Under the pieces are notes generated by a model. The model searched no databases, was not told the origin of the DNA, and saw nothing but the letters and a program-made list of their open reading frames with translations. A stretch of DNA of 64,000 bases, taken from an uncultured bacterium (GTDB lineage Bacteria > Hydrothermota > Tepidihabitantia > Tepidihabitantales > Tepidihabitantaceae). Position numbers and translations under genes: made by a program. Below, in pieces: positions 674 through 43,361 of this stretch (positions within the stretch are counted from its first letter, which is position 1; each line of letters opens with the position of its first letter). The DNA lies in the NCBI GenBank assembly GCA_964590395.1, contig CAZPVT010000006.1:4093-68092 (forward strand), given 5' to 3'.

Positions 674-678
674 AGTTT

Positions 679-23653: not shown

Positions 23654-24314
23654 GTTACCATTGTTGATCGCTATCCTGTTTGGCATCAACTGTCATATCT
23701 TAATTGACTCCACCCCTCCCACCTGCCTTATCATATCACCATTTGACTCCTCCTTAGTCTCTGGCATCGTTATAGTCCAAGCCGAGGCACACGATTCCGG
23801 TGGCATTGCCAGAATCGATTTTTACGCGGACGGCTCCCTTTTTGCCACTGAAACTTCTGCCACCGCAACTGCCGAATGGGACACCCGCAACCTGCCAGAA
23901 AACTCCTGGCATAAACTTTACTGTCTTGCCACCGACCTAGCTGGAAACCACAGTGCAAGTGAGACTGTGAATATCAAAGTTGTCTCAACCGCCCAACGCA
24001 GTCTATTTCACGGTAAAATCACCATCAATAATAACTATTATTTTACGATTAACTTCGACGCGGAAACGAGTAAAACCATTCGGGGCGACGCCCGCGCCGT
24101 TAACAACGGCAAAATCAGCCGATTTTTACTGCTTGATGCCAACAACTTCCAGAAATACCGCGCTGGCCAACCTTATACCGCACTTTACGAACAAAACGAC
24201 CGGTCTGAAGTCAGCATAAATTATCAATTTACCGTCACCGCCAGATATTATGTTGTCTTTCTCAATACCACCGGCACCTCGCAGACCTATTGGATAAGAC
24301 TTACCCTGGAGTAA
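23637..24314 (+). CDS. hypothetical secreted protein with Ig-like/Big-like region
   Basis: Signal peptide, then a beta-rich region (IVIVQAEAHDSGGIARIDFYADG). Confidence 0.4.
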   Translation: MNMKFRLPLLIAILFGINCHILIDSTPPTCLIISPFDSSLVSGIVIVQAEAHDSGGIARIDFYADGSLFATETSATATAEWDTRNLPENSWHKLYCLATDLAGNHSASETVNIKVVSTAQRSLFHGKITINNNYYFTINFDAETSKTIRGDARAVNNGKISRFLLLDANNFQKYRAGQPYTALYEQNDRSEVSINYQFTVTARYYVVFLNTTGTSQTYWIRLTLE

Positions 24315-24319
24315 TAATC

Positions 24320-25822
24320 ATGACGCTAATAATTGCCATTTTACTAAATATCCTCCCCCGACCAGAATGTCCGCCTTTGACCGTGGCTGACCTCAGACGT
24401 TATTTTACCCTTGAACAGCGTTTTAACACTCAAACACCTACCGAAAAGGTTGAACTACCAATGAGGCACGCGATTCCCGGACGACTGGTTATCGGCTTCC
24501 GACCCCAAGCACTCTGTTCGGTTATCTCCCGTCTGGAAGCGATTAATCTCCGCATCATCCTCATTGACACCACGGCAGATTTTATCGTCGTGCATCTCCC
24601 CCCGAATACCCAAGTTGCAGATTATGAAAAAATTATTACCTCGTTTGCCGGTATCAGATTTGTCGAACCGGACTTTTGGGTTTATACTCTGCTCATTCCT
24701 AATGACCCGATGTTTTCCACTGTTCAATGGGATAAATGGGTGATGTATTCAGACCCCGCTTGGGACATTGTCACCGGCGGGAATATCAAAGTTGCGGTTG
24801 TGGACAACGGCGTTGAATACCTCCATCCTGACCTCGCCGCCAACTTTCGTGCCGGAGAGCTCGGCTATGATTTTATTGGCAATGACAATGACCCGCGCCC
24901 GGACAACCCAACAATTGAAAATGCCTTCCACGGGACCCATGTTTCAGGAATCATTGCCGGTATCATCGGCAACCAAATTGGCATCGCTGGCTGGGCACAA
25001 GTTCAACTCCTCGCCGTCCGTGTCCTCAATGACTCGGGCAACGGAACATTAACTGATGTCGCCCGGGGTATTCGCTGGGCTGCAGACAACGGCGCGATAA
25101 TTATCAATCTGAGCATCGGTGGTGATGCGGTATCAACCCCATTACTTGAAGCCTGTCAGTATGCAGTGCGAAAAGGCGCGCTACTTGTCGCTGCATCGGG
25201 AAATGATGGCAAACAGGGCATAACCTATCCCGCCAAGATGGCGGAGTGTATTGCGGTCGGTGCCACTGACGCAACCTCTGAATTAGCCTGGTTCTCCAAC
25301 TACGGGCCAGAACTAGAGTTAGTTGCACCTGGAACCACCATCTATTCCACTGTTACTGGCGGATATTATGGTTCGGCTAATGGTACATCAATGGCTACTC
25401 CCCAGGTAAGCGGTGTAGCAGCACTGCTTTTTGCCCTTAACCCATCATTCACCGCCAACCAGGTAAGAGCGATATTAAGTGTCAGTGCGATTGATATGGG
25501 CGCTAATGGCAGAGACGCGTATTTCGGTTACGGCTTGGTAAATGCTTATCGGGCAGTTCAACTGGCGCAGTCATTGCTAACCGGTTCAACCACCAAATCT
25601 ATCGCTAACCTACCAACTCTACCCACTATTATTAACCATCGCACTCTATCCTTGCCGTTAAATGAGGGAATAATAAGTATTTATAATTCCACCGGCAGGC
25701 GTATCTTTAAATCTTCCTCGCCGGATAACAAAATCAACCTGACTGAACCAGGGACTTATTTTCTCCGAATTAACTTACCAAACTCATCACCGACTATCAA
25801 AAAAATAACTGTTATCCACTAA
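24320..25822 (+). CDS. S8 subtilisin-family serine peptidase with T9SS C-terminal sorting domain
   Basis: Catalytic triad regions VAVVDNGV (Asp), HGTHVSGIIAG (His) and GTSMATPQVSG (Ser). C-terminal ~60 aa CTD (IISIYNSTGRRIF...GTYFLRI). Confidence 0.85.
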   Translation: MTLIIAILLNILPRPECPPLTVADLRRYFTLEQRFNTQTPTEKVELPMRHAIPGRLVIGFRPQALCSVISRLEAINLRIILIDTTADFIVVHLPPNTQVADYEKIITSFAGIRFVEPDFWVYTLLIPNDPMFSTVQWDKWVMYSDPAWDIVTGGNIKVAVVDNGVEYLHPDLAANFRAGELGYDFIGNDNDPRPDNPTIENAFHGTHVSGIIAGIIGNQIGIAGWAQVQLLAVRVLNDSGNGTLTDVARGIRWAADNGAIIINLSIGGDAVSTPLLEACQYAVRKGALLVAASGNDGKQGITYPAKMAECIAVGATDATSELAWFSNYGPELELVAPGTTIYSTVTGGYYGSANGTSMATPQVSGVAALLFALNPSFTANQVRAILSVSAIDMGANGRDAYFGYGLVNAYRAVQLAQSLLTGSTTKSIANLPTLPTIINHRTLSLPLNEGIISIYNSTGRRIFKSSSPDNKINLTEPGTYFLRINLPNSSPTIKKITVIH

Positions 25823-26160
25823 TCTCGTTGGTATTCTGCCCAGCACTCATCGTTCTCCCATACTCTTACCTTGATAACCGGATAATACCGCGCCATCTCA
25901 TCAAAAAAATAACGAGCGAGATTTTCTGCTGTCGGATTGAAATTATAAACCTCGTTTAGTAGTTTGTGGTCAGGAAGCATGCTACTTAATTTCTCGCGCA
26001 ATTCTGAAAAATCAATCACCACTCCCGGCGGGTTCAAATGCTCAGAACCGACCACCACGTCCACCCGGTAATTGTGGCCGTGCATCTGTTCACACCTACC
26101 ATCGCCACCCTTAATCTGATGGGCAGCACTAAAACTATTCCTTACCATTACCCGATACAT
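25819..26160 (-). CDS. queD: 6-carboxy-5,6,7,8-tetrahydropterin synthase (PTPS/QueD family)
   Basis: CEQMHGHNY (C-x5-HGH) motif, 113 aa. Confidence 0.8.
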   Translation of the reverse strand: MYRVMVRNSFSAAHQIKGGDGRCEQMHGHNYRVDVVVGSEHLNPPGVVIDFSELREKLSSMLPDHKLLNEVYNFNPTAENLARYFFDEMARYYPVIKVRVWENDECWAEYQRD

Positions 26161-27257
26161 TATTTAACCTCCTTTTTTATTCTATTCTTGCCCCTTCTCT
26201 CCAAAACAGAAACAAACGCCTCAACCCGACTGATAAAGCCGGTCTCCGCGGTATGCTCATCAATTGAAATTGACAAGAGTGGAATGTCATAATCCCGGCT
26301 GGCTAAAAACAGCACCGGCTGTACCACAGTACTTGGCATACAGGCAAACGGATGAAGATGGATTACTCCGTCATAACCCTCCTGGGCAGCAAGAATCAGA
26401 TGGCCAAGTGAATTGGCATCCTCACCTCCAACACAATAACGCCAGTATTTTTTCGCTGCCATCTGTGCTCTTATAACCTCTCTTTTCCGCAATCGAAAAC
26501 TGTGGAATCCGAGCCAGCGCGGACCGGTCAAAAACGGCTCCACCCACACCCTCATTTCTCCCAGCAGTTCAATGACATTAAAATTAACAAAAGGTTCTAT
26601 GGTGCAATAACTTTCACCAATCAGTTTTATCCGCAGACAACTATCTCGGTCATTCCTTCTAATCCGGTCAAAACGAATAGCGACTGAATCTCTCAGCTGT
26701 ATCAGTTCTCTCACATTATTTGTGTTGGCGATCTGATTCACAACCTCCTGAACTAACCGCCGGCACTCCTTTGGCTCAACAGAAAAAGGCATTGTCTTGC
26801 GGGCATACTCATAGGTCTTTTCCAGAGCAGACGCTTTAAACCATCCCAGACGAAATGCTCGGGCCGTCCGCAAAAGTGCCCGGGAAAATCTACCCTCACT
26901 TAACCCCAGAATCTCTTTTGCCACCGCTATCAACTGATCATGCCGTAACTCCACTAATCTAAACTTATACCCCAGATCCCTGGCAATATCTGCCTGGAGT
27001 CTACCGTAATAACCATATCGGCACGACCAAGAACCACTCGTATAAACAAGTGCATCTGCTCCCATTTCTAAAGCACGAACAATATTACCCAGGGTTATCT
27101 TGAAAGGCAGACAGAAGGTTTCAGGTGCAAGCTGTACGCCCAATGCAATCGTCTCACGGTTAGGCGGTGGTGGTATTACGACCTGTGCCCCTAACTCCTG
27201 CATGATCGGTTCCAACACCAGCCGGATATCACCCATATAAGGAAACGCAGCCTTCAT
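26160..27257 (-). CDS. DUF2229-like / 2-hydroxyacyl-CoA dehydratase-related (acyl-CoA dehydratase activase-associated) protein
   Basis: CLPFK and C-terminal IDEHTAETG-type motifs. Paralogous to the upstream gene. The stop overlaps the queD ATG by 1 nt. Confidence 0.5.
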   Translation of the reverse strand: MKAAFPYMGDIRLVLEPIMQELGAQVVIPPPPNRETIALGVQLAPETFCLPFKITLGNIVRALEMGADALVYTSGSWSCRYGYYGRLQADIARDLGYKFRLVELRHDQLIAVAKEILGLSEGRFSRALLRTARAFRLGWFKASALEKTYEYARKTMPFSVEPKECRRLVQEVVNQIANTNNVRELIQLRDSVAIRFDRIRRNDRDSCLRIKLIGESYCTIEPFVNFNVIELLGEMRVWVEPFLTGPRWLGFHSFRLRKREVIRAQMAAKKYWRYCVGGEDANSLGHLILAAQEGYDGVIHLHPFACMPSTVVQPVLFLASRDYDIPLLSISIDEHTAETGFISRVEAFVSVLERRGKNRIKKEVK

Positions 27258-28201
27258 CGTCCACTGGCTCGGGCGCAGGCTAAATCAATAAACGACTCCA
27301 ACCTCGTTCTCAACCCGGTTTCAGAACTATGCTCATCAAAAAGCAGGGTCAAAATCGGCAATCCGCTCTTAACTGCTACCCTGCGGCGGACGAGTTCATT
27401 CATCACCGACGCAGTTCCACAGGCAAAACTTGATACCAACAGGATCCCGGCAGCCTGGTATTCTCTTAGTAGTTTTCTGGCCCTTACGAATAATTCTAAT
27501 TCATAAAACCAATTCGGCAGTTGACTACGCCTCACCTCATCGACAACCTCATTCTCTTTAACCACAGGCACCAGCGGCACAACGCCAAGTTCACTAAGCA
27601 TCTTTAACATATTAAGACTTATATGCTCATCGTAAATCAAATACGGATGACCGATTACACCGATCAACCGGTCGCACTCTCGCGCGTGCTTATTAAAGAT
27701 ATCAACCGGCACAAAACTGCTACTTAAATTTTCTGACGCTGGTATTTTATCATTAGTTGCCAACTTAAATGCCCTTCGTGCCGATCGACTGCTAACTCCC
27801 AATTGACGGGCAGTATCAACAAACGCCATTTCATCGGATTGGACCCGATGGTCAATAATCAGTTCAAAAAATTTATCAACCTTAGGGAAAATCGCGCTCA
27901 CCAAATCCGGCAAGGCAATCGCCTTAGGACAACCAAAAAACCAGTCCTGCTCCAAACTACGGCATACCATTCTGGGCAAAAAAACAAAATCGACTCTCTC
28001 CAGCAACCTATCTATCTGTCCTAAAAAAACCTTAACCGGCAGACACAGTTCTGCAGGTGCTATCGCGACACCCCGGGCAACAATATCCTTATCAGTTTTA
28101 TCTGACAGCACCACATCAAAACCCAGCTGTTCAAAAAAAAACCGCCACCGGGAAAAGTGGTAGTATGTATACAATCCACGTACAAAACCGATTTTCACCA
28201 A
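27254..28201 (-). CDS. DUF2229-like / 2-hydroxyacyl-CoA dehydratase-related protein (paralog)
   Basis: ELCLPVK and C-terminal FDEHSSETGLRTRLE motifs. Overlaps the downstream paralog by 4 nt. Confidence 0.5.
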   Translation of the reverse strand: MVKIGFVRGLYTYYHFSRWRFFFEQLGFDVVLSDKTDKDIVARGVAIAPAELCLPVKVFLGQIDRLLERVDFVFLPRMVCRSLEQDWFFGCPKAIALPDLVSAIFPKVDKFFELIIDHRVQSDEMAFVDTARQLGVSSRSARRAFKLATNDKIPASENLSSSFVPVDIFNKHARECDRLIGVIGHPYLIYDEHISLNMLKMLSELGVVPLVPVVKENEVVDEVRRSQLPNWFYELELFVRARKLLREYQAAGILLVSSFACGTASVMNELVRRRVAVKSGLPILTLLFDEHSSETGLRTRLESFIDLACARASGR

Positions 28202-28864: not shown

Positions 28865-29224
28865 TCAACTGGCGAGATTGCGCTTTGCCAGTTCTACCAG
28901 TTGAGCAAACTCTCCGGGTGCGTGAATCGCAACCTCGGATAGCACACTGCGGTCCAGGTCCACACCAGCAAGTTTTAGACCGTTAATAAACCTGCTGTAA
29001 CTGATATCGTAGGGTTTAAGTGCCGCGTTGATCCGTGTGATCATCAGCGACCGGAAAACACGTTTTTTCCGCTTGCGGTCCCGATAGGCGCTCAGCAAAC
29101 CGTGCATAACCTGTAGACGCGCAGTCTTGTATAACCTGGACTTACCACCCCAGTAACCCTTTGCTTGCTTTAACCATTTCTTGCGGCGTCTTCTGGTAAC
29201 TGGTCCGGTTTTTACTCTTGCCAT
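28865..29224 (-). CDS. rplT: 50S ribosomal protein L20
   Basis: MARVKTG...RRRKK N-terminus. Full-length L20. Confidence 0.95.
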   Translation of the reverse strand: MARVKTGPVTRRRRKKWLKQAKGYWGGKSRLYKTARLQVMHGLLSAYRDRKRKKRVFRSLMITRINAALKPYDISYSRFINGLKLAGVDLDRSVLSEVAIHAPGEFAQLVELAKRNLAS

Positions 29225-29233
29225 TTCTCTCCT

Positions 29234-29434
29234 TTACGAATAAGGCATCAAACGTTTCAGTGCTTTGACTCTGGTTTTATCGGCAATCGCTGGTCGATGC
29301 AAAAAACGTTTGCGCCGACTGTTCTTGGCACTGTTATTATGACTTGTGCCGCTATGACTATGCACAAACTTACCGGTTGCAGTTCTTTTAACTCGTTTCT
29401 TTAACGAACTTACCGTTTTTAGTTTCATCTTCAT
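29234..29434 (-). CDS. rpmI: 50S ribosomal protein L35
   Basis: MKMKLKT..KKR basic 66-aa protein in the expected position. Confidence 0.9.
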   Translation of the reverse strand: MKMKLKTVSSLKKRVKRTATGKFVHSHSGTSHNNSAKNSRRKRFLHRPAIADKTRVKALKRLMPYS

Positions 29435-29982
29435 TTTGGCACCAACATTAATTGAATTGACTTTCGACCTTCATCCAGAAATCTCACCTGTCCTTCGACT
29501 CGTGCGACATCAGACAGATCCTGCTTTATCCGCTCAATCAACCGCATCGCCAGATCGGTATGCAAAACCTCTCTTCCGCGTAACCATAAAATCAGCCGGA
29601 TGCGGTCCTTATCAGCAAGAAACTCCCGCATCTTCCGCAATTTCACCTCGTAGTCGTGTTTATCAATTTTCATCTTCATTCTAATCTGTCTCACCTGTGT
29701 CTGATGCTGCTTCTTTTTCGACTCACGCTGTCGTGCTTTTTGTTCATAAAGGTACCGCCCAAGATCCATAATGCCACAAACCGGTGGTTCCTCATTGGGT
29801 GCCAGCATTACCAGATCCAGACTCTGTCTTCTTGCTATTGCAATTGCCTCGCGGGTCGGCATTATGCCAATTGGCCTTTTATCCTCTCCGATTACCCGTA
29901 CATAGGGAACCCGGATCTGTTCGTTTGCCCTTGGTCGGTCCTTGAACCCTTCCCTTACAACCTGCTTACTATGCTCTTCCAG
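29431..29982 (-). CDS. infC: translation initiation factor IF-3 (non-AUG start; the ORF-track model is N-terminally truncated)
   Basis: The frame continues upstream of the first AUG with IF3 N-domain sequence (NEQIRVPYVRVIGEDKRPIGIM...). AGGAGG lies 6 nt before an in-frame CUG, and an in-frame AUA abuts the SD. Classic thrS-infC-rpmI-rplT arrangement. Confidence 0.8.
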   Translation of the reverse strand: MEEHSKQVVREGFKDRPRANEQIRVPYVRVIGEDKRPIGIMPTREAIAIARRQSLDLVMLAPNEEPPVCGIMDLGRYLYEQKARQRESKKKQHQTQVRQIRMKMKIDKHDYEVKLRKMREFLADKDRIRLILWLRGREVLHTDLAMRLIERIKQDLSDVARVEGQVRFLDEGRKSIQLMLVPK

Positions 29983-31867
29983 TTTTATCCTCCTTGATTA
30001 GTGCTACTACTTTATCCAACGAAAAGGCACCGAGATTACCTTTACCGCGCTGGCGCAACGCGACGGTATTTGCTGCCGCCTCGCGCCCGCCAACAACCAG
30101 CATAAAGGGGATCTTCTGGCGCTCTGATTCACCAATCTTATAGTTTATTTTATCATTATTTAAATCAATTTCAACTCTGACATCTTCGGCTCTCAGAATA
30201 TCATAAACCCTCCGGGCATAATCGGTCTCTTTATCCGTAACTGTCATTATCCGTGCCTGTACCGGCGCCAGCCAGACCGGAAACGCACCACCGTAGTGCT
30301 CAATCAAAATTCCGATAAACCGTTCAATTGAGCCCAACACCGTTCGATGAACAAGATAAGCCGGCAGATGCTGACCGTTACTATCCATATAGTAAACATC
30401 AAGTTTATTTCCCAGATTAAAATCAAACTGACAGGTAGCACACTGAAACTCCCTACCCAGTGAATCCGCAAGATTGATATCGATCTTCGGACCGTAAAAA
30501 ACCGCCTCTCCTTCCGCACGGTGAAAATTAAGCCCGAGCCGGTTGAGTGCATTGATTAACGAACCTTCCGCCACCTGCCACTGCTCATCGGCGCCTAAAT
30601 ATTTTTCCGGATGTTTCGGGTCGCGCACCGAAAGTGCAACATTAAATTTCTCAAAACCAAAACTCCTTAGCATCTTCAGTGCGAGGGAGACGACTCCAAA
30701 AATTTCTTCCTCCACCTGTTCACGGGTACAGAAGATATGAGCGTCGTCCTGCGTAAATCCCCTCACCCGCATCGTACCGTGGAGCACACCGGAACGCTCA
30801 TAACGATAAACCGTCCCCCATTCTGCCAGACGCAACGGCAGGTCCCGATAGGAGTGAACCTTTGTGCGATAAAGCAGAATATGACCCGGACAGTTCATCG
30901 GCTTCAGCACATACTCCTCATTCCCCATCGGAATGACATACATATTTTCCCGGTAATAATCATAGTGTCCCGAGCGATGCCACAACTCACTCCGGGCGAT
31001 ATGGGGGGTAACGACCAGCTGATAACCGGCTTTTAGATGCTCCCTCTCCCAGTACTGCTGGATGAGCCGTCTTACCACCGTCCCCTTCGGGTGCCAGAAT
31101 ACCAGTCCCGCTCCTGCCTCCTCATGAAAACTGAAAAGGTCCAGTGCCGGACCGAGTTTCCGATGGTCGCGCCGCTTTGCCTCCTCCAGCCTCTCTAAAT
31201 ACTCTGCCAACTGCTGCTCATCAGAAAACGCAACGCCGTATATCCTCGAAAGCATCCGATTCCGCTCATCACCACGCCAGTAGGCACCGGCAACACTCAG
31301 AAGTTTAATTGCCTTAATCCTGCCGGTATCCGGCAGATGCGGACCGCGACAGAGATCAACAAAATCACCCTGCTCGTAAACCGAAATTTCTTCATCTGGA
31401 ATCTCATTGATAATTTCCAGTTTGTAACTCTCGCCCCGCTCTGAAAACAGCCGGATCGCCTCATCCCGGGGTAAATACTTATGGATAATCGGAATTTTTT
31501 CGGCTGCCAGTTCACGCATCCGCGTCTCAATTTTCTCTAGGTCCTTTTCAATAAAAGGGGTGGGCACATCAAAATCGTAATAAAAACCCTCCGGTACCGC
31601 TGGTCCGATAGTTACCTTTGCCTGTGGATACAACTGCTTTACCGCCTGCGCCATCAGGTGAGAAGCGGAATGCCAAAAAATCTCCCTGCCTTCAGGAGAA
31701 TCAAAATAAACCGGTTCAACCCGGGCATTATTTTCAATCCGAAATGCCAGATCCACCAGCCGATCATCAACCCGAGCGGCGATCGCCTCTCCATCTTTGA
31801 GCAACTCCCCGGCAGTTACTCCCGGTGCTACCTGCCGTTCTTCGCCTTGGACAATTACTTTAATCAC
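29969..31867 (-). CDS. thrS: threonine--tRNA ligase
   Basis: TGS N-domain, class II aaRS motifs and C-terminal anticodon-binding domain. 632 aa. Confidence 0.95.
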   Translation of the reverse strand: MIKVIVQGEERQVAPGVTAGELLKDGEAIAARVDDRLVDLAFRIENNARVEPVYFDSPEGREIFWHSASHLMAQAVKQLYPQAKVTIGPAVPEGFYYDFDVPTPFIEKDLEKIETRMRELAAEKIPIIHKYLPRDEAIRLFSERGESYKLEIINEIPDEEISVYEQGDFVDLCRGPHLPDTGRIKAIKLLSVAGAYWRGDERNRMLSRIYGVAFSDEQQLAEYLERLEEAKRRDHRKLGPALDLFSFHEEAGAGLVFWHPKGTVVRRLIQQYWEREHLKAGYQLVVTPHIARSELWHRSGHYDYYRENMYVIPMGNEEYVLKPMNCPGHILLYRTKVHSYRDLPLRLAEWGTVYRYERSGVLHGTMRVRGFTQDDAHIFCTREQVEEEIFGVVSLALKMLRSFGFEKFNVALSVRDPKHPEKYLGADEQWQVAEGSLINALNRLGLNFHRAEGEAVFYGPKIDINLADSLGREFQCATCQFDFNLGNKLDVYYMDSNGQHLPAYLVHRTVLGSIERFIGILIEHYGGAFPVWLAPVQARIMTVTDKETDYARRVYDILRAEDVRVEIDLNNDKINYKIGESERQKIPFMLVVGGREAAANTVALRQRGKGNLGAFSLDKVVALIKEDKTGRA

Positions 31868-31914: not shown

Positions 31915-32604
31915 TCAGGGACTGATCTTGAAATACACCCCGGCATTCAGCCACTCATCAGCCCGTCTTCTACCCAACACATCATACACCATACCGTCTG
32001 TTACGGTCCAACGCTCTCTGCTCAGCATCACCAATTTTCTCCTCTTCATTGAACCCCGCGCATCCAACTGAAACTCCTCCTGATTACCCTGCAAGGTTGT
32101 ATCATCTACCGTAACATCATCAAAGTAAACCATTGCCCCCGGCAGTGCCAAACAGGAAACAGAAAGGAAAACAGCCGAATCCGGAGTAGTAACCCAGTGG
32201 GAGTACTGGCGATAACTGTTAGAGTAATAAACCGGAATAAACAGTGGTGTGCCCACCGGATTGCCCAACATTGTCAGAAACTGCAATATAAATGAACCAC
32301 CTAAACCACCCGGCACCAGGGCAAAACCAGAAAACTTGTAATAAGCACCGGACCGCACCACGGTTAACGAGGTGGCAAACGCCATCGTATCTCCACCGAG
32401 CAGACACAGACAGTAATCACCGGAATTACTCTGGGTATCTTTTACTGCTGAACCTGGATAAAGGAACTCCGATGTCAGCCAGCCGAGGGGCATATTCACC
32501 CCCAACGTATCCAGCCATACTTCAAAAGAAGGATTCGGCAGAATATTGACCGCACCGGCAATCCCCAGCAATAAAAACAGTAAACCAGCGGACTTAATTT
32601 TCAT
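31915..32604 (-). CDS. hypothetical secreted protein, CBM-like beta-sandwich with T9SS-type C-terminal domain
   Basis: Signal peptide, NPSFEVW carbohydrate-binding-module-like N-terminus and a C-terminal VYDVLGRR...GVYFKI tail. Confidence 0.45.
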   Translation of the reverse strand: MKIKSAGLLFLLLGIAGAVNILPNPSFEVWLDTLGVNMPLGWLTSEFLYPGSAVKDTQSNSGDYCLCLLGGDTMAFATSLTVVRSGAYYKFSGFALVPGGLGGSFILQFLTMLGNPVGTPLFIPVYYSNSYRQYSHWVTTPDSAVFLSVSCLALPGAMVYFDDVTVDDTTLQGNQEEFQLDARGSMKRRKLVMLSRERWTVTDGMVYDVLGRRRADEWLNAGVYFKISP

Positions 32605-32634: not shown

Positions 32635-35529
32635 TCAATTTCTCTCCGAACTGAACAGAACCTGCCTGTAGGCATTCAGCACAAACGGATCCGGCTCCCT
32701 ATCCTTTGCTAAAAGCAATATCGCCCTAACCTCCCGGTCCATCATCCTTCCCAGCGCCTCCACCGCACACAACCGCACAAAAGGCTCGTTATGCTCCAAG
32801 TACCGCTTAATCTCACGCCGGCACTTATCCTTAGTCACCTCGGTTGTTAAGGTATCAAGTTTAGCAACAATCTGTCCAAGCGCCCGGATACTGTGTCCGA
32901 GTGCGGGCACTGGCTGTTTTACCAGACTCCGCAACAGCGGGTCGATACTCGGTTCACCAATTGCCACCAGTGCTGCCTCAGCAGCACTGCGCACGGTAAA
33001 GAATCTATCATTCAAACTCGCAATCAAATCGTCAATTGCTACCGGGTTTTTTAACTTACCGCAGGCTTCGGCGGTAACAATTCTGGAAACTTCAAAAGTA
33101 TCTTTAAGCAGATAAAGTATCTTCGGCACCACCGTGGAATCACCGATACTGCCCAGCGCGTAAACCGCCCGGCGCGGAGTGATCCGCTTCTCTTTCAATG
33201 CCAACAGGATTGAATCCACCGCATCCAGTGCACTCTTTCCCATCTCGCCCAGCCAGTATGCCGAGTTATTCCGGGCAAGATACCTTGAATCCCGCAGACC
33301 CCTGTAAAGATAGGGCTTACAGGTATCAGGTAGCGCACAGCACAGTGCCTTGATCGCCTCTGATTCCAGGCCATCCTTGGTATCCAGTTTCTTTTCATAA
33401 AAATACTCTATCGCTTTCTTCCCCAGTCTTATCAACTCTTTTCTCGCCCTAAGAACCCTCTTCCGCGCATTGCCCACTGCCCAGATTGATGCGGTCTTAA
33501 AAATACTCTCCACCGGTACGGTGATTATCGAATCAATGCTTGCCTCTGAAGTATCAACATCCGGCTCCCAGTCAATCACTGTAGCAGGACGTGCCAGGTC
33601 CGCACCGGAACCGTAAGTCCCTTTTGTCCATCTGTTCTGGTCTTCTGCCACATTTCTCCCTGAATACCAGTCCTTGCCCGCAAGGTCTAAAAAAACACCC
33701 ATTCCTCCAAATCCCCGTGCCCAGTTTGACGACCCCTGACAGATTAACGACTCTGATGCCATATACCAGTCATTACCATCCTGGTCAATAAAAAGCCCAA
33801 CCGAATTGGTCAGTCCAATACCCTGTCCACCAGAAGCGTAATACCCATCATCACCCTTGCGGTCCACTAACACCCCGACCGAAAGGTCATGCCCTTCGCC
33901 CTGACTCGGACCGAGCCGGGAAAAATAGGAGTCATTACCCTCCTCATCAATCAAAGCGCCAACCGAAAGATGAATCCCCGCGCCCTGTGTATATTGAGCC
34001 GCGGTATAATGGTCAAACCCCTCCTCATCATAAAGCATTCCCAACGAATACCAGTAACTTGTCCCCTGTGCGAAAACCTCGGCATTATAGAAATCGTTTC
34101 CCTGAAAATCGGCAAGAAATCCGATACCCCCACCTGCATCCGGTCGCACCCCGATTGCAAAACCCTGAGCAAATGAGCGATACTCTCTGGGCAACAATGG
34201 CTCATGCTTGTATTTACCACCTGCATAATAAAGGTCATTTCCCCGGCCCTCTGCCAGTAAACCATATCCCCAGGTTCCGGCAAACCCCTGACAGTAACAA
34301 CTGGAGCGATAAACATCATTACCATTCTTATCAATCAGCAGACCTGTGCCGTAATGCCCCGCACCTTGAACAAAAAACCCCGCATCGTAAACATCATTAC
34401 CATCACCATCCCTTAGCACACCGGTACCAAATATTGCGCTACCCTGAGCATAATGCTTACTGCGATACACATCATCACCCTGCAGGTCAAAAACCACCCC
34501 GCACCCGAAAACTGCGGAACCCTGGGCAAAAATCTTACTACTCTGATACAGGTCATTACCTTTTAAATCCAGCACCACACAGAAAGGCTTGTCAAGAACT
34601 CCTACCGCACCACCCGCACGATTGTAATATATGTCATTTCCACCAAGGTCGATTATCACCGCCGCCTCGCACTCATAAACATTATCACCACTGCCCCCGA
34701 CAATCACCCTACCCCATTCGCTCTCCTGATAATAAACCACATCGCCCTTTACCCCATCCACCTGCTGCTTGACAGCAATATCAATTAGTCCATCTCTTAA
34801 AATCATAGCTGCCTTATCAACTGCCATCACCACCACCAACCCGCAAAGTGCCAGTGCTTTACGGTCAATCTTCCGGGCATAAGCAAGCAAAGTCTCAGCC
34901 TTAACCTGCTGTGCGGTGTCATAATCTCGGCCAAACTCCCGATGCAACATCCCGCTGAATCCCCTTTCCAACGTATCATCCTCATCCTTCCAGAATGATG
35001 GCACTTCGCCGAGCAAAATATCCAGCTCCCGCTTCGGAATCTGGGTGATTGCCATTTTCAGATACCGATTACCAACCGCAAAACCGGCAAAAATCAGATT
35101 CAATGCCTTTACTAACTCCGGTGTCAGACCATCCTTTATACCGGGACTAACCCGCACCACCGCTTGAATCTCATTCCACAACCTAACAGAATCCGATTTA
35201 CCCACCGGCACATCAACCTGCTGATAAAGCGAAAACAATAACCCGGCAGGCAAATCAAGTCGCTTTTTGACCTTTACTGCTTCATCCTCAACATACGGCA
35301 GCACCCCCAGAGGACGAGCAAGCAAACTTTCCACCACCTTCAGCCGGAAAAAACTGTCAATCGCCCATAACTTATAAAACCCTAACTCCTCCTCATTCAT
35401 CCCCTGAATCTTCAACGCCTCATCCAGCGTTGCTCTTGTGAGTGAATCAAGCCCGTAAATTGCTGTTGTGGTTTTACCAGCCACAAAACTCCCCAAAAGA
35501 ACAACCAGCACAAAAAGATTTTTCATCAC
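32635..35529 (-). CDS. large exported protein with >=11 tandem ~26-aa D-x-x-G-(N/D)-D-x-Y...Q-G repeats (predicted beta-solenoid) and C-terminal HEAT/PBS-lyase-like repeats
   Basis: Signal peptide. Repeats such as LDLKGNDLYQSSKIFAQGSAVFGCGVV, FDLQGDDVYRSKHYAQGSAIFGTGVL and IDKNGNDVYRSSCYCQGFAGTWGYGLL. C-terminal alpha-solenoid (HEAT-like). Confidence 0.55.
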   Translation of the reverse strand: MMKNLFVLVVLLGSFVAGKTTTAIYGLDSLTRATLDEALKIQGMNEEELGFYKLWAIDSFFRLKVVESLLARPLGVLPYVEDEAVKVKKRLDLPAGLLFSLYQQVDVPVGKSDSVRLWNEIQAVVRVSPGIKDGLTPELVKALNLIFAGFAVGNRYLKMAITQIPKRELDILLGEVPSFWKDEDDTLERGFSGMLHREFGRDYDTAQQVKAETLLAYARKIDRKALALCGLVVVMAVDKAAMILRDGLIDIAVKQQVDGVKGDVVYYQESEWGRVIVGGSGDNVYECEAAVIIDLGGNDIYYNRAGGAVGVLDKPFCVVLDLKGNDLYQSSKIFAQGSAVFGCGVVFDLQGDDVYRSKHYAQGSAIFGTGVLRDGDGNDVYDAGFFVQGAGHYGTGLLIDKNGNDVYRSSCYCQGFAGTWGYGLLAEGRGNDLYYAGGKYKHEPLLPREYRSFAQGFAIGVRPDAGGGIGFLADFQGNDFYNAEVFAQGTSYWYSLGMLYDEEGFDHYTAAQYTQGAGIHLSVGALIDEEGNDSYFSRLGPSQGEGHDLSVGVLVDRKGDDGYYASGGQGIGLTNSVGLFIDQDGNDWYMASESLICQGSSNWARGFGGMGVFLDLAGKDWYSGRNVAEDQNRWTKGTYGSGADLARPATVIDWEPDVDTSEASIDSIITVPVESIFKTASIWAVGNARKRVLRARKELIRLGKKAIEYFYEKKLDTKDGLESEAIKALCCALPDTCKPYLYRGLRDSRYLARNNSAYWLGEMGKSALDAVDSILLALKEKRITPRRAVYALGSIGDSTVVPKILYLLKDTFEVSRIVTAEACGKLKNPVAIDDLIASLNDRFFTVRSAAEAALVAIGEPSIDPLLRSLVKQPVPALGHSIRALGQIVAKLDTLTTEVTKDKCRREIKRYLEHNEPFVRLCAVEALGRMMDREVRAILLLAKDREPDPFVLNAYRQVLFSSERN

Positions 35530-35535
35530 CCCTCC

Positions 35536-37137
35536 TTATCTATTAATAAGCACCTTTAATCTACTGCCTCTACCCTGCACCAGATAAACACCTGCGGGCA
35601 ACAGATTGCCGTGGCTATCACTGCCATCCCAGATCACCTGTTTCTGCGCCAGTGCCTCCCATACCCTCCTACCATCGCTGGAATAAATCTCAATCAGTTC
35701 TGGCTTATCAGCACTCAAAACGATCTCAGCCTTATTCCGGAACGGATTGGGCTTAAAACCTATCACTACCCGTTTTGCCGGTTCTGGCATATCCTCAATC
35801 CCAACCTGACTGGAGTCAAAAGTGATGTCGCAGATAATTGTGTCGCCCACCTCCCGGATATTCCGCACACTCACCCAGGTCGGCTGATTGTTCCTTGCCT
35901 TGCTTGACGGGTTTGACCAGTTGTCAAAACTTGTCCGGTTCCAGATTCCAGGTAAAGGATCAGAGGTATCACCCAGCGCCTCATGATAGATATGCGGGTC
36001 AGGTCTTACACCGCTACCACGGTCCAGGTGATAGGTTGAATCCTCCTCCAGGTCAACCCGATTGTGATCGGCGCTATAATACGGATCAATATGCCAGATT
36101 AACAGTCCAGAACCGGGCAACGGTGCATCAAAACCCTTTTTCTGCCGGTTTTCCAAAAGAAAACAGGTATCAGAATCTCTACCCTGTCGCCACACCTTGT
36201 AAACAACCGGATGGGTCTCAACATCTAAAATCCGCAAACCAAATGTATCCCGGGTTATCACCACCGGCTGGACAAAACCTGCCTCAACCTTGCTCCACGC
36301 CTCCATATGTGATGGGCTCCAGGGTGTATTACCACCTGCGCCCCATGCACCATAACCCATCAAACCCCAGTAACCGATACCCCAACTGTTTCGGCTGTAA
36401 TCATAAAGGTCAGGCAATCCTACTAAATGTCCGAGTTCATGGCACATCACCGCAATACAGCAAAGTGTGGTATCTCTGCTCTCGGTAACCATTGCAAACT
36501 CCGGCACATTGGTAACACCATCAATTATCACCCCATCATTTGTCCGGTAATTAAAATACGGTATCGCGTGCGACCACAGGCAATTAACATCGCCGTTATC
36601 CGCACCATCCGCACCTGCATGCACCATAAACATCGCCTCAATATGCCCATCACCGTTAACATCAAAATCCTGGAAATCAATAAACGAATCAACCTGCTGT
36701 AAATTCTCCCTTGCCAGTTGTCTGCCAGTTGATAGCATATAATTCCCATCGTAATAACGGGAATAGTTGTATCTCGACATAAACCAGCGGTTACCCGCAA
36801 CTCCACCCCGCACCGAGTACCGACCATACGAGTTTTCTAAAAAGAAATCATTCAAACTCCCTGCCCGATAAGGCTGACCATTATAAACCCCGACCGAATA
36901 AAGCATAGAATCAAACCTTGCCGGTGAATGTCTGATTGTATCTGCCCGGTTATCCGAAAACTGCATCAGAATCGTAACCGTCTCGCAAAAATCATAGTCC
37001 TTCAGTTTATTCGGACCCGGAACCTCAACACCCGCAGGAAAAACCGGTGCTGGTCCCCAAAAACCGGGCTTGGGTGGCATTGCTAATGAAATACTGAAAA
37101 CCAGTAAAAACACTGCTGTTAGCCTCATATTTCTCAT
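35536..37137 (-). CDS. M6 (immune inhibitor A-like) zinc metallopeptidase with T9SS C-terminal sorting domain
   Basis: HELGHLVGLPDLYD zinc-binding motif in an InhA-like context. Signal peptide. C-terminal CTD (EIYSSDGRRVWEA...GVYLVQGRG). Confidence 0.75.
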   Translation of the reverse strand: MRNMRLTAVFLLVFSISLAMPPKPGFWGPAPVFPAGVEVPGPNKLKDYDFCETVTILMQFSDNRADTIRHSPARFDSMLYSVGVYNGQPYRAGSLNDFFLENSYGRYSVRGGVAGNRWFMSRYNYSRYYDGNYMLSTGRQLARENLQQVDSFIDFQDFDVNGDGHIEAMFMVHAGADGADNGDVNCLWSHAIPYFNYRTNDGVIIDGVTNVPEFAMVTESRDTTLCCIAVMCHELGHLVGLPDLYDYSRNSWGIGYWGLMGYGAWGAGGNTPWSPSHMEAWSKVEAGFVQPVVITRDTFGLRILDVETHPVVYKVWRQGRDSDTCFLLENRQKKGFDAPLPGSGLLIWHIDPYYSADHNRVDLEEDSTYHLDRGSGVRPDPHIYHEALGDTSDPLPGIWNRTSFDNWSNPSSKARNNQPTWVSVRNIREVGDTIICDITFDSSQVGIEDMPEPAKRVVIGFKPNPFRNKAEIVLSADKPELIEIYSSDGRRVWEALAQKQVIWDGSDSHGNLLPAGVYLVQGRGSRLKVLINR

Positions 37138-37404
37138 TCCTTAAGTGTTTTACTATACCATGACAAACACAGAAATCAACAATCCAATATAAAAACGCGC
37201 TCACTGCTATAGGATGATCTGGACGCCGTACTGGCAATTACTGCTGTATCCGGTAGACGTAGAAACTGGCAACCATCCTGCCACTCCAGACTATCCTTAT
37301 CATACCTCTCTGTTGACAAATCGCAAAATAATTTATAACATTCTAAAATGCGTGATATAATCCAGCACATAGCAAGCAAAGGAACAAAATATCGGCAGTA
37401 ACTA

Positions 37405-37902
37405 ATGACTAAGATGAAACTGATTGTCCCACTTATAATCGGTATAATAATAACTATCTGCACAGCCCAACAATTGTGGGTAGCAAGATACAACGGACCA
37501 GGAAATGGTTACGACGAAGCAACCGCGATTGCGGTCGATAATAGTGGCAATGTTTATGTCACAGGCTGGAGTATTGGTTCAGGCACTTATGAGGATTATG
37601 CAACGGTAAAGTGTGGTAGTGGTTCTATCCTTGAAGAAAACAGGACGACGGCACAGTTAAAACAGGAATGGCTAATCCCGACTCTGATAAAGGATGAGTT
37701 GTTAATACGCTTTAATCAATCAGTAGAAAAATCTCTCTCGTTATTTATTTATAACGCACTGGGCGAAAAGTTGCGTTCCTCCCCGATTGAAAAGGGAACA
37801 GAAACAATGTGCTTATCCTTGAGCGGTTTAAGAACGGGTACCTACTTCATAAAATCTAATAACAGGACCATCAAACCTGTAAAAGTGACCTTAACAAGAT
37901 AA
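37405..37902 (+). CDS. short SBBP-repeat protein with T9SS-type C-terminal domain (possible truncated paralog of the 61517.. gene)
   Basis: One beta-propeller SBBP-like repeat ([32 protein letters not shown]), then directly a CTD-like tail. Confidence 0.5.
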
Positions 37903-39267: not shown

Positions 39268-41883
39268 ATGTTATTATCGCTTGTTCTTATCTTAACTACC
39301 GCAAAACCGCAACTCTCTGACTTCCTCTCCCGCCAGGATTACTCTACCGCCGCTCAATACTATTATCAGCAGATTCAGCGCCAGCCGAAAAACCTTTCCG
39401 CTATTAAAAACCTTGCCCGGGTTTACGACCACTGGCGCAGGTTTGACTCCAGTTTATACTGGTGGGAAAAAGCCTTTCAACTTCAGCCCGATGATGACTC
39501 GGTTATAGTTGGCAGATGGCGGGCGCTATACAACTTTCACAAAAAGGACAGTGCACAACTTGATTCAATTAAGAAATTACTCGAAACCGAACTCCTCCGC
39601 ATCTTCGTCTATCCTGATACCAGTTATCGCAGTATTAGCCTTGCCTATCAGGGATTTGTCCTGATTGAAGACACAGTGCGTACCCGCCGCGCTGCCAATC
39701 TCCTTACCCACCTCTATCCGGACTCTGCTATCTCCTACGAGATAATCGGCAGCGCATTTTATGACTCCCTCTATCCGGTCTGGAATAACGACACCGCCAA
39801 ATTACTGGTCATCTCCAACTTCCTTGCCCGCTATCCAAAAACCGAATGGCGCCAGACATTTTATATTTATCTATTAAGCTCCCTCTTTAATCTCAAGGAC
39901 ACCCTGAGTCTTGTCTCAATGACCCACCGGATGCTCAAAGAGGATTCGCTTGACCCATTCCGCTACCGGTATGCCTCTGCCATCTTTAACCGGCTGAAGT
40001 TCCATCCCGAACTTGCCGAACTTTATGCCCGAAAGGCAATTGAACTGGAACCAAAGGCAAAAAAACCGAAAAATAAACCCCAGGAACAGTGGCAACTTGA
40101 ATACCCACCCCTATATGGTCTTGCCCGGGTTGCCCTTACCGAAGCGCTTTTGCTTCAGAACCGGCCAGCAGAGGCGCTTCCCTATCTTTATCAGGCAATT
40201 CAGAACTTCTCCTGGGACCCGGATAATGAGATGACCCCTGCCCCCTACTACTGCCTCCTTGGTGAAGCCTACGAAAAACTGGGCAAGACCGACAGCGCAA
40301 AAATCGCCTATCTTAAAACCCTGGTCTTTGGTGACTCCCGCAACTACTATACCAGCCGTGCGGACACCAATCTCCAGCGTCTCGGCGTAAGACAAAACGA
40401 ACAGTTAACCCTTGCCCGCGAGATTTTAAATTATACCGGTCCGGTCTTCACCGATGTCACCGAAGCATACGGCCTGGAAAACCGGCGCGAGTCACGGGTT
40501 GCCTGGGGCGATTATAATAATGACGGTTATGAGGATCTCCTCTTAAATGGCTGCCGTCTTTTCCGCAACGACTCGGGCAGGTATTTTACCGATGTAACCG
40601 ATTCCGCCGGCTTAACCGGCATTACCGGCAGGGGTGGTATCTTTGCGGACTTTAACAACGACTACTGGCTTGACCTTTATGTCTGCGGTGCGGATACTCA
40701 AGACTACCTGCTTCTGAACCGATTCGGCAGACTCTTTGACCTCACCGAATCGCTCGGCTCTCCATCTGATCCTTATCCTACCGAAGGCTGTGCGGTTGCC
40801 GACTACGATCAGGATGGCTGGCTTGACATCTACTGCGCCAACTACGAAAACTGGGAAAAACGGATCTATTATCCGGACCATCTTTATAAAAACGAACTGG
40901 GCAGATTCAAAAATATAACCAAAACCACCGGCATAATCCCGCCCTATAACGAAGACCTTGCGGGCAGAGGGGTCAACTGGTGCGATTACGACGACGACAC
41001 CTATCTGGACTGCTATGTCTCCAACTACCGCCTGTGTCAAAACCTGCTCTGGCACAACAACCGCGACGGCACATTTACCAACCTTGCTCCGAAACTGGGC
41101 ATTGCCGGCGATGAAGTAAAAGGCTACTTTGGCCATACGATCGGCTCGGTCTGGCAGGACTTTGACAACGACGGCGACTGGGACCTATTCTGTGCCAACC
41201 TTGCCCATCCCCGCTACATCGAATTCTCCAACCGTTCAACTCTTTACGAAAACCGCGGACCAAAGGCAAACCCGCAATTTATTGACCGGCGCGCCCAACT
41301 CGGCATCCGCTACGAAGAGACCCACTCAGACCCGGCATTTGCCGATGTGGACAACGACGGCGATTTAGACCTTTACCTGACATCTATCTACGAAAACAGG
41401 CGCTCATTTTTATACCTCAACCAGTTAAACCCGGATCCCGCACCTGCAATTGACTTTGGCAACTACCGGTTCCAGGAGGTAACCTATCTTGCCGGGGTCC
41501 GTGCCTTTAACGGCTGGGGCTGTGCCTTCTCGGACTTTGACAACGACGGTGATCTGGACCTGGTGGTTGGCTCGGGCTCGGGCCTGCGCCTCTTTCGCAA
41601 CGACACCAAAAACGAAAACAACTGGCTCAAGGTCAAGGTTATCGGCACCAAACACAACACAAGCGGTATCGGTGCGAAGGTTACGGTCATTCAGGGCAAA
41701 AAAAGGTATATCCGGCAGGTGGAAGGTGGCAAAGGCACAACCAGCCAGAACTCACTCGTTCAGCACTTCGGCCTGGGCAAATCAAAAGCGCCAATAACCG
41801 TGGAGGTCCGTTTTGGCAAGGATTCTCAGGTAACCCTGAAAAATGTCCAGCCCAACCAGATGCTGATTGTAACCGAGCCCTAA
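39268..41883 (+). CDS. TPR-repeat + FG-GAP/VCBS-like repeats + C-terminal ASPIC/UnbV domain protein (CRTAC1 family-like)
   Basis: N-terminal TPR-like helices. Repeated ...DxDxDGxxD... FG-GAP-like motifs (YNNDGYEDLLL, FDNDGDLDLVVG). C-terminal UnbV_ASPIC-like domain. Confidence 0.7.
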   Translation: MLLSLVLILTTAKPQLSDFLSRQDYSTAAQYYYQQIQRQPKNLSAIKNLARVYDHWRRFDSSLYWWEKAFQLQPDDDSVIVGRWRALYNFHKKDSAQLDSIKKLLETELLRIFVYPDTSYRSISLAYQGFVLIEDTVRTRRAANLLTHLYPDSAISYEIIGSAFYDSLYPVWNNDTAKLLVISNFLARYPKTEWRQTFYIYLLSSLFNLKDTLSLVSMTHRMLKEDSLDPFRYRYASAIFNRLKFHPELAELYARKAIELEPKAKKPKNKPQEQWQLEYPPLYGLARVALTEALLLQNRPAEALPYLYQAIQNFSWDPDNEMTPAPYYCLLGEAYEKLGKTDSAKIAYLKTLVFGDSRNYYTSRADTNLQRLGVRQNEQLTLAREILNYTGPVFTDVTEAYGLENRRESRVAWGDYNNDGYEDLLLNGCRLFRNDSGRYFTDVTDSAGLTGITGRGGIFADFNNDYWLDLYVCGADTQDYLLLNRFGRLFDLTESLGSPSDPYPTEGCAVADYDQDGWLDIYCANYENWEKRIYYPDHLYKNELGRFKNITKTTGIIPPYNEDLAGRGVNWCDYDDDTYLDCYVSNYRLCQNLLWHNNRDGTFTNLAPKLGIAGDEVKGYFGHTIGSVWQDFDNDGDWDLFCANLAHPRYIEFSNRSTLYENRGPKANPQFIDRRAQLGIRYEETHSDPAFADVDNDGDLDLYLTSIYENRRSFLYLNQLNPDPAPAIDFGNYRFQEVTYLAGVRAFNGWGCAFSDFDNDGDLDLVVGSGSGLRLFRNDTKNENNWLKVKVIGTKHNTSGIGAKVTVIQGKKRYIRQVEGGKGTTSQNSLVQHFGLGKSKAPITVEVRFGKDSQVTLKNVQPNQMLIVTEP

Positions 41884-42599: not shown

Positions 42600-43361
42600 T
42601 TATGCCAATTTAACCCTGCCTTTTCGCAAGGCATCAAGCGAAATCCAGTTTCCGTCCTTTGTCTTGAACCGCCACCATGTCCAGCCATTTATAGACCGCC
42701 CTGTTGCTGCTTTTCCGGCTGATGACGGCGAATTAAATATTTTATTTTTCAACCTCTGCCAATCTGCGCTTCTGCTATCAAATGTGATTGTTCCATCTTT
42801 GCGTATTTGAGCAATGAATGTTTTCCCCTTGTATTCCATCCGAATGTGTAATCGCTTGAATACATATTCACTTAGTTTAGTTTTGTGTTTATTCGTTATT
42901 TTTCCTCTATCTTTTGCCCCCGATTTACTTTCTTCTTCTTCATCCGATATACTCCAACTCGTCCACTCTTCAATTTTTCGGTTTACACTTTCCCGCAAGC
43001 GTCGACGTAATTCATACATCAAGTCCTGTGAATCAATAAATTTACCTGTTACTCTATTCCCGGGCGGTTCTGCAATGCGAAGTATCAATGCTTCAAGCTC
43101 CTTCAGATGCTCATCGCCTTCGGTCAGATAGATACTGAAGCGGTTCCATTTGCCAGAATGGCGGTCACGCATATGACTGCGTAATCTCGATCGCAGATTT
43201 CTTGCTAATCCAACGTAATAAAGACGGTCATTCTTGTAAAGCGCATAGACGCCGTTTTTTCTTCTGATAAAATCGCGAATAACCTCAGGGGATTCGTCCA
43301 GCACTTCCCCAGCAACCCCCTCAAGATGCTGAACAACCAAACGCGTTGGTCTATATTTCAT
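42600..43361 (-). CDS. GIY-YIG nuclease-domain protein with DUF4357-like C-terminal domain
   Basis: GVYALYKNDRLYYVGLARNLRSRLRSH GIY-YIG motif. C-terminal FNSPSSAGKAATGRSINGWTWW motif that I recall as characteristic of DUF4357. Confidence 0.6.
   Translation of the reverse strand: MKYRPTRLVVQHLEGVAGEVLDESPEVIRDFIRRKNGVYALYKNDRLYYVGLARNLRSRLRSHMRDRHSGKWNRFSIYLTEGDEHLKELEALILRIAEPPGNRVTGKFIDSQDLMYELRRRLRESVNRKIEEWTSWSISDEEEESKSGAKDRGKITNKHKTKLSEYVFKRLHIRMEYKGKTFIAQIRKDGTITFDSRSADWQRLKNKIFNSPSSAGKAATGRSINGWTWWRFKTKDGNWISLDALRKGRVKLA

Follow-up and report, generated by a model that had tools for sequence, protein, structure and literature searches.

A stretch of 64,000 nucleotides of contig CAZPVT010000006.1, from an uncultured bacterium of the Hydrothermota (hereafter the window), carries a gene for a long protein in which a helical N-terminal domain and a predicted beta-solenoid are followed by HEAT repeats. 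The coding sequence lies at 32635-35526 on the minus strand, begins with ATG, is complete and encodes 963 aa. Its parts, with confidence from AlphaFold2 (AF2) given as the predicted local distance difference test (pLDDT), are as follows.

35531-35535, minus strand: GGAGG ribosome-binding site, read from the sequence; it lies between the stop codon of the upstream M6 protease gene (35536-35538) and the ATG, 4 nt from the ATG
35476-35526, minus strand: putative Sec signal peptide MKNLFVLVVLLGSFVAG, recognized by inspection; no lipobox Cys
34780-35457, minus strand: all-helical N-terminal domain, approximately residues 25-250 (AF2 helices 28-246, pLDDT mostly >85)
33586-34767, minus strand: predicted beta-solenoid domain, approximately residues 255-648, with a hairpin cap, one degenerate coil and 12 coils of 26-28 aa
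33715-34146, minus strand: putative ligand-binding or active site on coils 6-11, with R462, Y492, W493, Y513, H520, H547, D548, N575 and R605 near-invariant
33517-33579, minus strand: low-confidence linker, approximately residues 651-671 (pLDDT <50 at 650-670)
32653-33513, minus strand: HEAT (PBS-lyase-type) alpha-solenoid, approximately residues 673-959 (Pfam, PDB and Foldseek matches; AF2 helical repeats 672-958)

The initial annotation had reported an open reading frame (ORF) of 964 aa at 32635-35529. The ORF is real; it is read from the minus strand, the plus-strand translation of the same interval being riddled with stops, and its length is probably 963 aa. The ORF finder placed the start at a GTG (35529), but the ATG at 35526-35524 is the likelier start because the junction with the M6 gene, read directly, is TAA-GGAGG-GGTG-ATG. 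Close homologs share an MKNLF start. The reported distance of 6 nt to the M6 gene is correct to the GTG and becomes 9 nt to the ATG; no terminator-like site was found at this junction. Within the part of the gene that encodes the solenoid, the plus strand has an antisense ORF of 261 aa (33987-34772). It was taken as spurious because homolog conservation tracks the minus-strand frame, and probably stems from the Gly/Asp-rich codon pattern.

The middle part of the protein is a tandem array with the motif h-h-D-x-x-G-[ND]-D-x-Y...Q-G...G-x-G-h. The array is not a chance pattern: the protein contains D-x-x-G-x-D-x-Y 11 times, and 5000 shuffled sequences contained it 0.007 times on average and never more than once, which bears out the repeat described in the initial annotation. 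The count given there, at least 11, can be refined to 12-13, i.e., 12 clear units and a degenerate 13th at residues 272-291, ahead of the others. The turn G-[NDKF]-D-x-[YF] was found 12 times between residues 297 and 618, at spacings of 27, 27, 26, 26, 27, 47, 27, 27, 28, 26 and 33 residues, so that the clear units measure 26-28 aa each, save two with insertions (47 and 33 aa). Q-G stands in the middle of 10 of the 12. A hidden Markov model (HMM) of the unit, built from nine of the 12 repeats, recovers all 12. The nine seed units score independent E-values of 1e-12 to 1e-16, which is circular by construction; the non-seed repeats 6, 11 and last are recovered weakly or in part (0.0013, 0.05 and 3.5e-05, respectively). 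The same HMM has no match elsewhere in the 64-kb window. Pairwise identity among units is 19-65% (mean 38%), and no DNA-level tandem repeat was found; given this divergence and the lack of a DNA-level repeat, we regard the array as ancient and not recently expanded.

AF2 was run with an 80-sequence alignment, both on the full-length protein (pLDDT 85.4; predicted template modelling score, pTM, 0.79) and on residues 24-660 separately (pLDDT 90.2, pTM 0.93). Residues 254-643 are predicted with high confidence (pLDDT ~90) as a beta-solenoid whose strand pattern recurs every ~27 residues, once per unit, in agreement with the fold guessed in the initial annotation; the prediction has the generic features of the beta-solenoid fold. 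According to DSSP, a long strand formed by G-x-G-h-h-h-D runs into the x-x-G-N-D turn, x-Y-x-x-x-x forms a second strand, and a short third strand follows Q-G, which suggests approximately three beta-segments per coil in the model. The middle ~390 residues are thus predicted to form a previously undescribed beta-solenoid with 13 coils of ~27 residues.

Searches of family and structure libraries (a 2025 copy of Pfam, NCBIfam 20, PDB, and Foldseek against PDB and BFVD) separated the protein into an annotated third and an unannotated remainder. The C terminus is an alpha-solenoid of PBS-lyase-type HEAT repeats, as initially proposed. HEAT_2, HEAT_PBS and HEAT matches cover residues 730-940 (E = 3e-19 and 8.5e-9 for HEAT_2 and HEAT_PBS), with PF13646, PF03130 and PF02985 scoring 69.5, 35.5 and 30.9 bits against gathering cutoffs of 27.7, 20.9 and 23.5. 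A PDB sequence search with phmmer returned only alphaRep/HEAT proteins, down to 2e-35, and Foldseek with the full-length model returned only HEAT and armadillo proteins (alphaRep, importin; E ~4e-7). PBS-lyase-type HEAT repeats are the natural basis of alphaRep designs, and the C-terminal 290 residues resemble them in both sequence and fold. A phycobilin-lyase function (CpcE/CpcF, NblB) was rejected: NCBIfam yields only sub-threshold phycobilin-lyase matches, all on the HEAT part and far below the equivalog cutoffs (39.6 vs 330, 22.8 vs 220 and 18.4 vs 300), and unlike these lyases the protein is apparently exported and belongs to a non-photosynthetic lineage.

For residues 1-700 there was no match in Pfam, and the isolated domains gave none at E<=5. 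Fourteen diverse homologous solenoids matched nothing in Pfam at E<=10, and a solenoid profile found nothing in PDB at E<=10. The protein does not match the Pfam beta-helix clan or the pectate-lyase, bactofilin, FG-GAP, pentapeptide or hexapeptide repeats. The initial annotation, which could not assign the repeat to a known family, had named a clean match to a known Pfam repeat as the result that would speak against it; no such match was found, since the repeat hits nothing in Pfam or NCBIfam even at E<=5-10. The helical N-terminal domain likewise has no Pfam match, and its best hit in a PDB profile search has E=0.034. Foldseek with residues 24-660 found nothing in PDB below E=0.001. Its top match is 3p4g, the Ca2+-bound beta-helix of MpAFP (E=0.68, probability 0.41, target-normalised TM score 0.42), with an RTX lipase lower in the list. 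A phage tailspike-like fold was rejected, as Foldseek found nothing in the BFVD viral structure library, and no description of this family turned up in full-text searches of the literature. In sum, the combination of a helical domain, a solenoid with 27-residue coils and a HEAT partner is absent from the Pfam, NCBIfam, PDB and literature searched. The HEAT part, only one third of the protein, is the source of its whole database name.

Relatives are numerous. A word-indexed search with residues 1-699 gave >1300 homologs. Of the best 120, nearly all have 930-1030 aa, the exceptions being a few truncated or incomplete entries; their label is candidate division WOR-3, with a single Latescibacteria, and none has a name other than "HEAT repeat domain-containing protein" or "hypothetical". 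A second homolog search from a verrucomicrobial seed returned only proteins of metagenomes and metagenome-assembled genomes (MAGs), with equally uninformative names. HMMER, run exhaustively with only the solenoid as query, detected 3,612 representatives (50% clustering) at E<=1e-3 and 1,683 at E<=1e-30. In a scan of one genome per species, relatives occurred in at least 589 GTDB species with >12 phylum-level labels, among them WOR-3, Eisenbacteria, Fermentibacteria, TA06, Zixibacteria, Cloacimonadota, Hyd24-12 and Gemmatimonadetes, and further Ignavibacteria, Bacteroidia, Verrucomicrobia, Planctomycetales and Armatimonadota. The genomes of the best 80 loci are all MAGs, and neither a cultured host nor a more specific protein name appeared in these loci or in the two homolog lists.

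In the best 150 representatives, the whole 375-residue solenoid aligns as a single stretch with 42-62% identity to the window protein, and from this we conclude that coil number is fixed. The initial annotation had raised the possibility that unit number varies among relatives; it does not, the domain aligning as one block across phyla. A variable-number repeat or adhesin was accordingly rejected on fixed length and the lack of a DNA repeat. The only length variation seen in the solenoid is an insertion of ~30 residues near coils 5-6 that splits the HMM match, found in homologs of ~1000-1140 aa (L021, L024, L029, L031, L033, L036, L038, L043, L045, L049, L052 and L056 in our locus list); about half of this group are labelled Eisenbacteria and one is labelled Fermentibacteria.

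The association of the solenoid with HEAT repeats was analyzed with module HMMs (N-terminal domain, solenoid and HEAT) built from the clade of the window and run on simple gene calls for the best 80 loci. All three modules are fused in 57 loci. In 12 loci the solenoid protein is a short form, of 620-695 aa apart from one truncated at a contig end, and HEAT is encoded by its own gene of 300-360 aa, which the HEAT HMM recognizes as well. Eleven of these HEAT genes directly follow the solenoid gene on its strand, frequently with a 4-nt overlap. HEAT is therefore fused or adjacent in 69 of 74 assessable loci, and two further loci could not be judged. The helical domain always precedes the solenoid in the loci examined. 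That the two are fused in certain genomes and encoded as a split pair elsewhere implies that the solenoid module and the HEAT arm act together, which is as strong a statement on function as the data support. By these gene arrangements, the HEAT arm is apparently an obligate partner of the solenoid module; as judged from the alignments, helical domain and solenoid together form an ancient module of fixed length. One MAG, CAYNTG01, has two paralogs (L020 and L064), a fused 964-aa form and a 638-aa short form; the separate HEAT gene of the short form is two genes downstream.

Conservation was examined across 81 aligned sequences whose identity to the window protein is 30-52%. Within the repeat unit, positions G6, D8 and Y10 are 93-100% conserved in every coil, and D3 is conserved to the same degree in 11 of 12 coils. 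The near-invariance of D3, G6, D8 and Y10 makes a case for an ion ladder, or at least for an essential ladder of Asp turns, and the D-x-x-G-(N/D)-D-x-Y turns probably stabilize the solenoid by binding Ca2+. A second set of residues lies outside the motif and is conserved at 95-100% in this cross-phylum alignment: R462, Y492, W493, Y513, H520, H547, D548, N575, R605 and D644. W493, H520, D548 and T574 occupy one register position in successive coils, four residues past Q-G; Y492, H547 and N575 adjoin this position, and Y513 precedes Q-G. The segment after Q-G-x-x is a non-strand corner by DSSP on the AF2 model. This register suggests a continuous conserved ridge on coils 6-11; its stacked His-Asp pair, with a second His alongside, would be compatible with metal binding, with a catalytic dyad or with a polar groove for a ligand.

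Beta-solenoids built on Gly/Asp turns are known as such, and two of them provide a frame for the Ca2+ proposal. The RTX repeat has the consensus GGxGxDxUx and region IV (RIV) of MpAFP the consensus xGTGNDxuxuGGxuxGxux, and both form Ca2+-bound beta-solenoids; MpAFP region IV has ~13 coils, each with one x-G-T-G-N-D-x-u turn that binds one Ca2+ (PMC3492233). The turn G-(N/D)-D-x-Y/hydrophobic of the window protein corresponds to positions 4-8 of the RTX consensus, and RTX proteins (PF00353) also form Gly/Asp-rich parallel beta structure outside the cytoplasm, as is proposed here. They differ in having 9-aa units with two turns per 18-aa coil, as opposed to one turn per 26-27-aa coil, in having G-G at positions 1-2 where the window protein has D-x, and in carrying a C-terminal signal for the type I secretion system (T1SS) instead of an N-terminal Sec-like signal. 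MpAFP RIV, the best although non-significant structural neighbor, shares one G-N-D turn per coil. Its coil is 19 aa, compared with 26-28 aa, it has a Thr/Asx ice-binding face that is not present in the window protein, and it is one region of a 1.5-MDa T1SS adhesin, whereas the window protein is a fixed protein of 963 aa. RTX membership was rejected on the lack of a Pfam match at E<=10 and an hhalign probability of 0.9% against CyaA RTX, and an MpAFP-type helix on an hhalign probability of 0.3% against MpAFP RIV together with the non-significant Foldseek match. With its 26-28-aa coils and hhalign values below 1%, the protein may work like a Ca2+-stabilized helix, yet it falls outside the RTX and MpAFP families. 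Parallel beta-helix enzymes (pectate lyase, GH28, AlgE) are alike in being long single-chain beta-solenoids with a position-specific polar ridge over several coils; they differ in that no Pfam, PDB-sequence or Foldseek match connects them to the window protein, whose coils are far more regular in sequence.

With regard to location, inspection of MKNLFVLVVLLGSFVAG shows an n-region and an h-region like those of signal peptides, and a crude heuristic detected an N-terminal hydrophobic segment in 211 of 249 full-length homologs (85%). The Pfam and NCBIfam scans revealed no export signal of the type IX secretion system (T9SS), T1SS or autotransporter type, including the T9SS type A C-terminal domain (TIGR04183 / PF18962), and the C terminus is HEAT. 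The protein is probably an exported, periplasmic component of the cell envelope.

Two minus-strand genes flank the solenoid gene.

35536-37137, minus strand: M6 (InhA-like) metalloprotease, upstream (TIGR03296, 1.2e-47; HELGH at residue 233 intact)
31915-32604, minus strand: co-oriented 229-aa ORF, downstream after a 30-nt gap, with a signal peptide and no Pfam or NCBIfam match

The initial annotation had described the upstream gene as a T9SS-secreted M6 protease in the same orientation. The M6 assignment and the HELGH motif hold, and the protein has a putative T9SS tail, whose Por_Secre_tail match is below threshold (20.7 bits, cutoff 23). The M6 and solenoid genes would be co-transcribed, as an operon in this clade. 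Only L003/L004, L006 and L007, whose proteins share 66-75% identity with that of the window, keep the two genes adjacent; a universal operon with an M6 protease was thus ruled out, the arrangement being clade-specific. In distant relatives, the upstream genes encode a Metallophos plus CBM9 protein, a radical-SAM protein or housekeeping functions. An M42 aminopeptidase is downstream in seven loci of a single clade and an M20 peptidase is upstream in two. An HtrA-type PDZ domain stands at the N terminus of six of the best 150 representatives; one representative is fused to an M14 carboxypeptidase (best NCBIfam match MpaA, sub-threshold) and one to a C45 hydrolase plus PDZ. These fusions and peptidase neighbors, which are few and not phylogenetically independent, point weakly to extracytoplasmic protein or peptide handling. 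Whether the 229-aa ORF belongs to the operon is uncertain: one homolog (52% identity) occurs in L014, not adjoining the solenoid gene, and the ORF is absent from L006, where thrS is directly next. This ORF starts with 'NILPNPSFE', and its C terminus (...GVYFKISP) is reminiscent of T9SS tails.

Several other genes were noted in the window. The thrS-infC-rplT cluster is located downstream of the solenoid gene (28865-31867). A small protein of 165 aa that combines an SBBP beta-propeller repeat with a Por_Secre_tail (T9SS) domain (37405-37902, plus strand) diverges from the M6 operon, and a 105-aa minus-strand ORF without a Pfam match (37176-37493) overlaps the start of its gene. At 23637-25822 (plus strand), the gene for a Big_7 Ig-domain protein precedes one for an S8 subtilase whose T9SS tail is weak, and the subtilase and the M6 protease constitute a secreted-protease cluster within 15 kb. 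Further genes encode an 871-aa protein with TPR repeats, seven FG-GAP_3 repeats and an ASPIC/UnbV domain (39268-41883, plus strand); a 253-aa protein with GIY-YIG nuclease, RAMA and DUF4357 domains, an architecture of the mobile-element or restriction-associated type (42600-43361, minus strand); and two adjacent DUF2229/HGD-D proteins resembling CoA-enzyme-activase and 2-hydroxyglutaryl-CoA dehydratase (26160-28201, minus strand), which suggest amino-acid fermentation. Outside the window, in a MAG labelled Armatimonadota (L080), the gene upstream of the homolog (45-1886, plus strand) encodes a protein of 614 aa in which the T9SS type-A sorting domain is clear (39 bits, cutoff 23).

We propose that the protein is an exported, probably Ca2+-stabilized solenoid platform that uses its conserved ridge, together with the HEAT arm, on an envelope protein, peptide or polymer. 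Confidence is high for the architecture and low for the function, and we assign this reading a tentative probability of approximately 45%. In this model, three modules would travel together, i.e., the helical N-terminal domain, a rigid 13-coil beta-solenoid and the HEAT-repeat arm. At one corner of each coil, the D-x-x-G-(N/D)-D-x-Y turns would form a Ca2+ ladder or, failing that, a series of Asp-mediated turns that hold the solenoid together outside the cytoplasm. At a second corner, on coils 6-11, R462, Y492/W493, H520, H547/D548, N575 and R605 would make up a functional site, either ligand-binding or catalytic, and the HEAT arm would recruit or present a partner. The ligand would most likely be an extracytoplasmic protein, peptide or envelope polymer, a class suggested by the PDZ, M14 and C45 fusions and by the operon with a secreted M6 protease in this clade. 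The analysis itself shows the repeat, the predicted fold, the lack of a known family, the partnership with HEAT, the pattern of conservation and the breadth across phyla; export, Ca2+ binding, the site, the ligand class and any link to the M6 protease are inferred.

Several observations weigh against this model. No solved structural relative of the solenoid or N-terminal domain is available, and the reading is computational throughout. The Ca2+ proposal draws on motif resemblance over five residues, and hhalign shows no homology to either MpAFP RIV or CyaA RTX. The spatial clustering of the conserved residues is derived from repeat register and DSSP only. Five of the short forms lack a HEAT gene in their vicinity. 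All-against-all clustering of the neighbors in the 80 loci revealed no broadly recurring gene save HEAT, most neighbors being housekeeping genes, and the peptidase association amounts to a handful of clade-level events.

The same ridge could instead be the active site of an enzyme. The solenoid would then act like polysaccharide lyases, GH28 enzymes or alginate C5-epimerases on an envelope or extracellular glycan, with Ca2+ as cofactor and the HEAT repeats as an anchoring or processivity arm. Identity of 42-62% in the best 150 representatives, which the genome scan suggests are spread over many phyla, fits enzymes or parts of a machine better than adhesins, and polar and aromatic residues like the near-invariant ones found here serve in carbohydrate-active beta-helix enzymes. 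In addition, some neighbors are secreted hydrolases with a CBM9 domain, and epimerase R-modules are found, along with RTX repeats, among proteins with the GND turn. However, neither sequence nor fold matches a CAZy-type beta-helix in Pfam or PDB, there is no conserved glycan-metabolism neighborhood, and the fusion partners are PDZ domains and peptidases rather than carbohydrate-binding modules (CBMs) or glycosidases; we consider a glycan-active enzyme unlikely. Still less probable is a passive rod or adhesin without a specific site, comparable to RTX adhesins or autotransporter passengers. In its favor, adhesins often contain beta-solenoids, the top structural neighbor, although not significant, is the adhesin domain MpAFP RIV, and the window is rich in T9SS-secreted surface proteins. 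A rod of this kind is difficult to reconcile with a length and repeat number fixed across phyla, old and diverged units without a DNA-level repeat, the lack of a T9SS, T1SS or autotransporter signal and the strong conservation of position-specific residues outside the motif. The gene also appears to be single copy in most genomes (an uncounted impression; one MAG has two).

The gene pair in the window raises one more alternative, namely that the protein is a dedicated partner of the adjacent T9SS M6 protease, such as a chaperone, an inhibitor or a maturation or anchoring factor. The two genes are 9 nt apart with a ribosome-binding site between them, and the pair recurs in L003/L004, L006 and L007. 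The pairing is, however, limited to relatives that share 66% identity or more with the window protein, with L014 (66%) and all farther loci having other neighbors, and the family also occurs in genomes labelled Verrucomicrobia and Planctomycetes, in which T9SS is not expected. A role dedicated to the protease is thus improbable, about as much so as that of a passive rod. A more specific form of the proposed platform is a new Ca2+-dependent envelope module, acting as an enzyme or as a specific receptor whose ligand would be an envelope polymer or proteins that are unfolded or secreted, with the His-His-Asp-Arg-Tyr-Trp ridge as its site and HEAT as its obligate partner; so specified, it is a long shot of the same order as the glycan-active enzyme.

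If this more specific reading is correct, these proteins would represent a new protein family and a system conserved across candidate phyla of the FCB and PVC groups. At present, ~650 of 963 residues have no annotation in thousands of homologs from at least 589 species of mostly uncultured phyla. Recognition of the helical domain and solenoid would justify a new family or domain entry and correct the misleading HEAT-only name, and the analysis singles out a small set of invariant residues for experimenters. An enzymatic or receptor role of the module, if established, would mean a further conserved envelope function in WOR-3, Eisenbacteria, Zixibacteria, Cloacimonadota and Verrucomicrobia, organisms whose cell biology is almost unknown.

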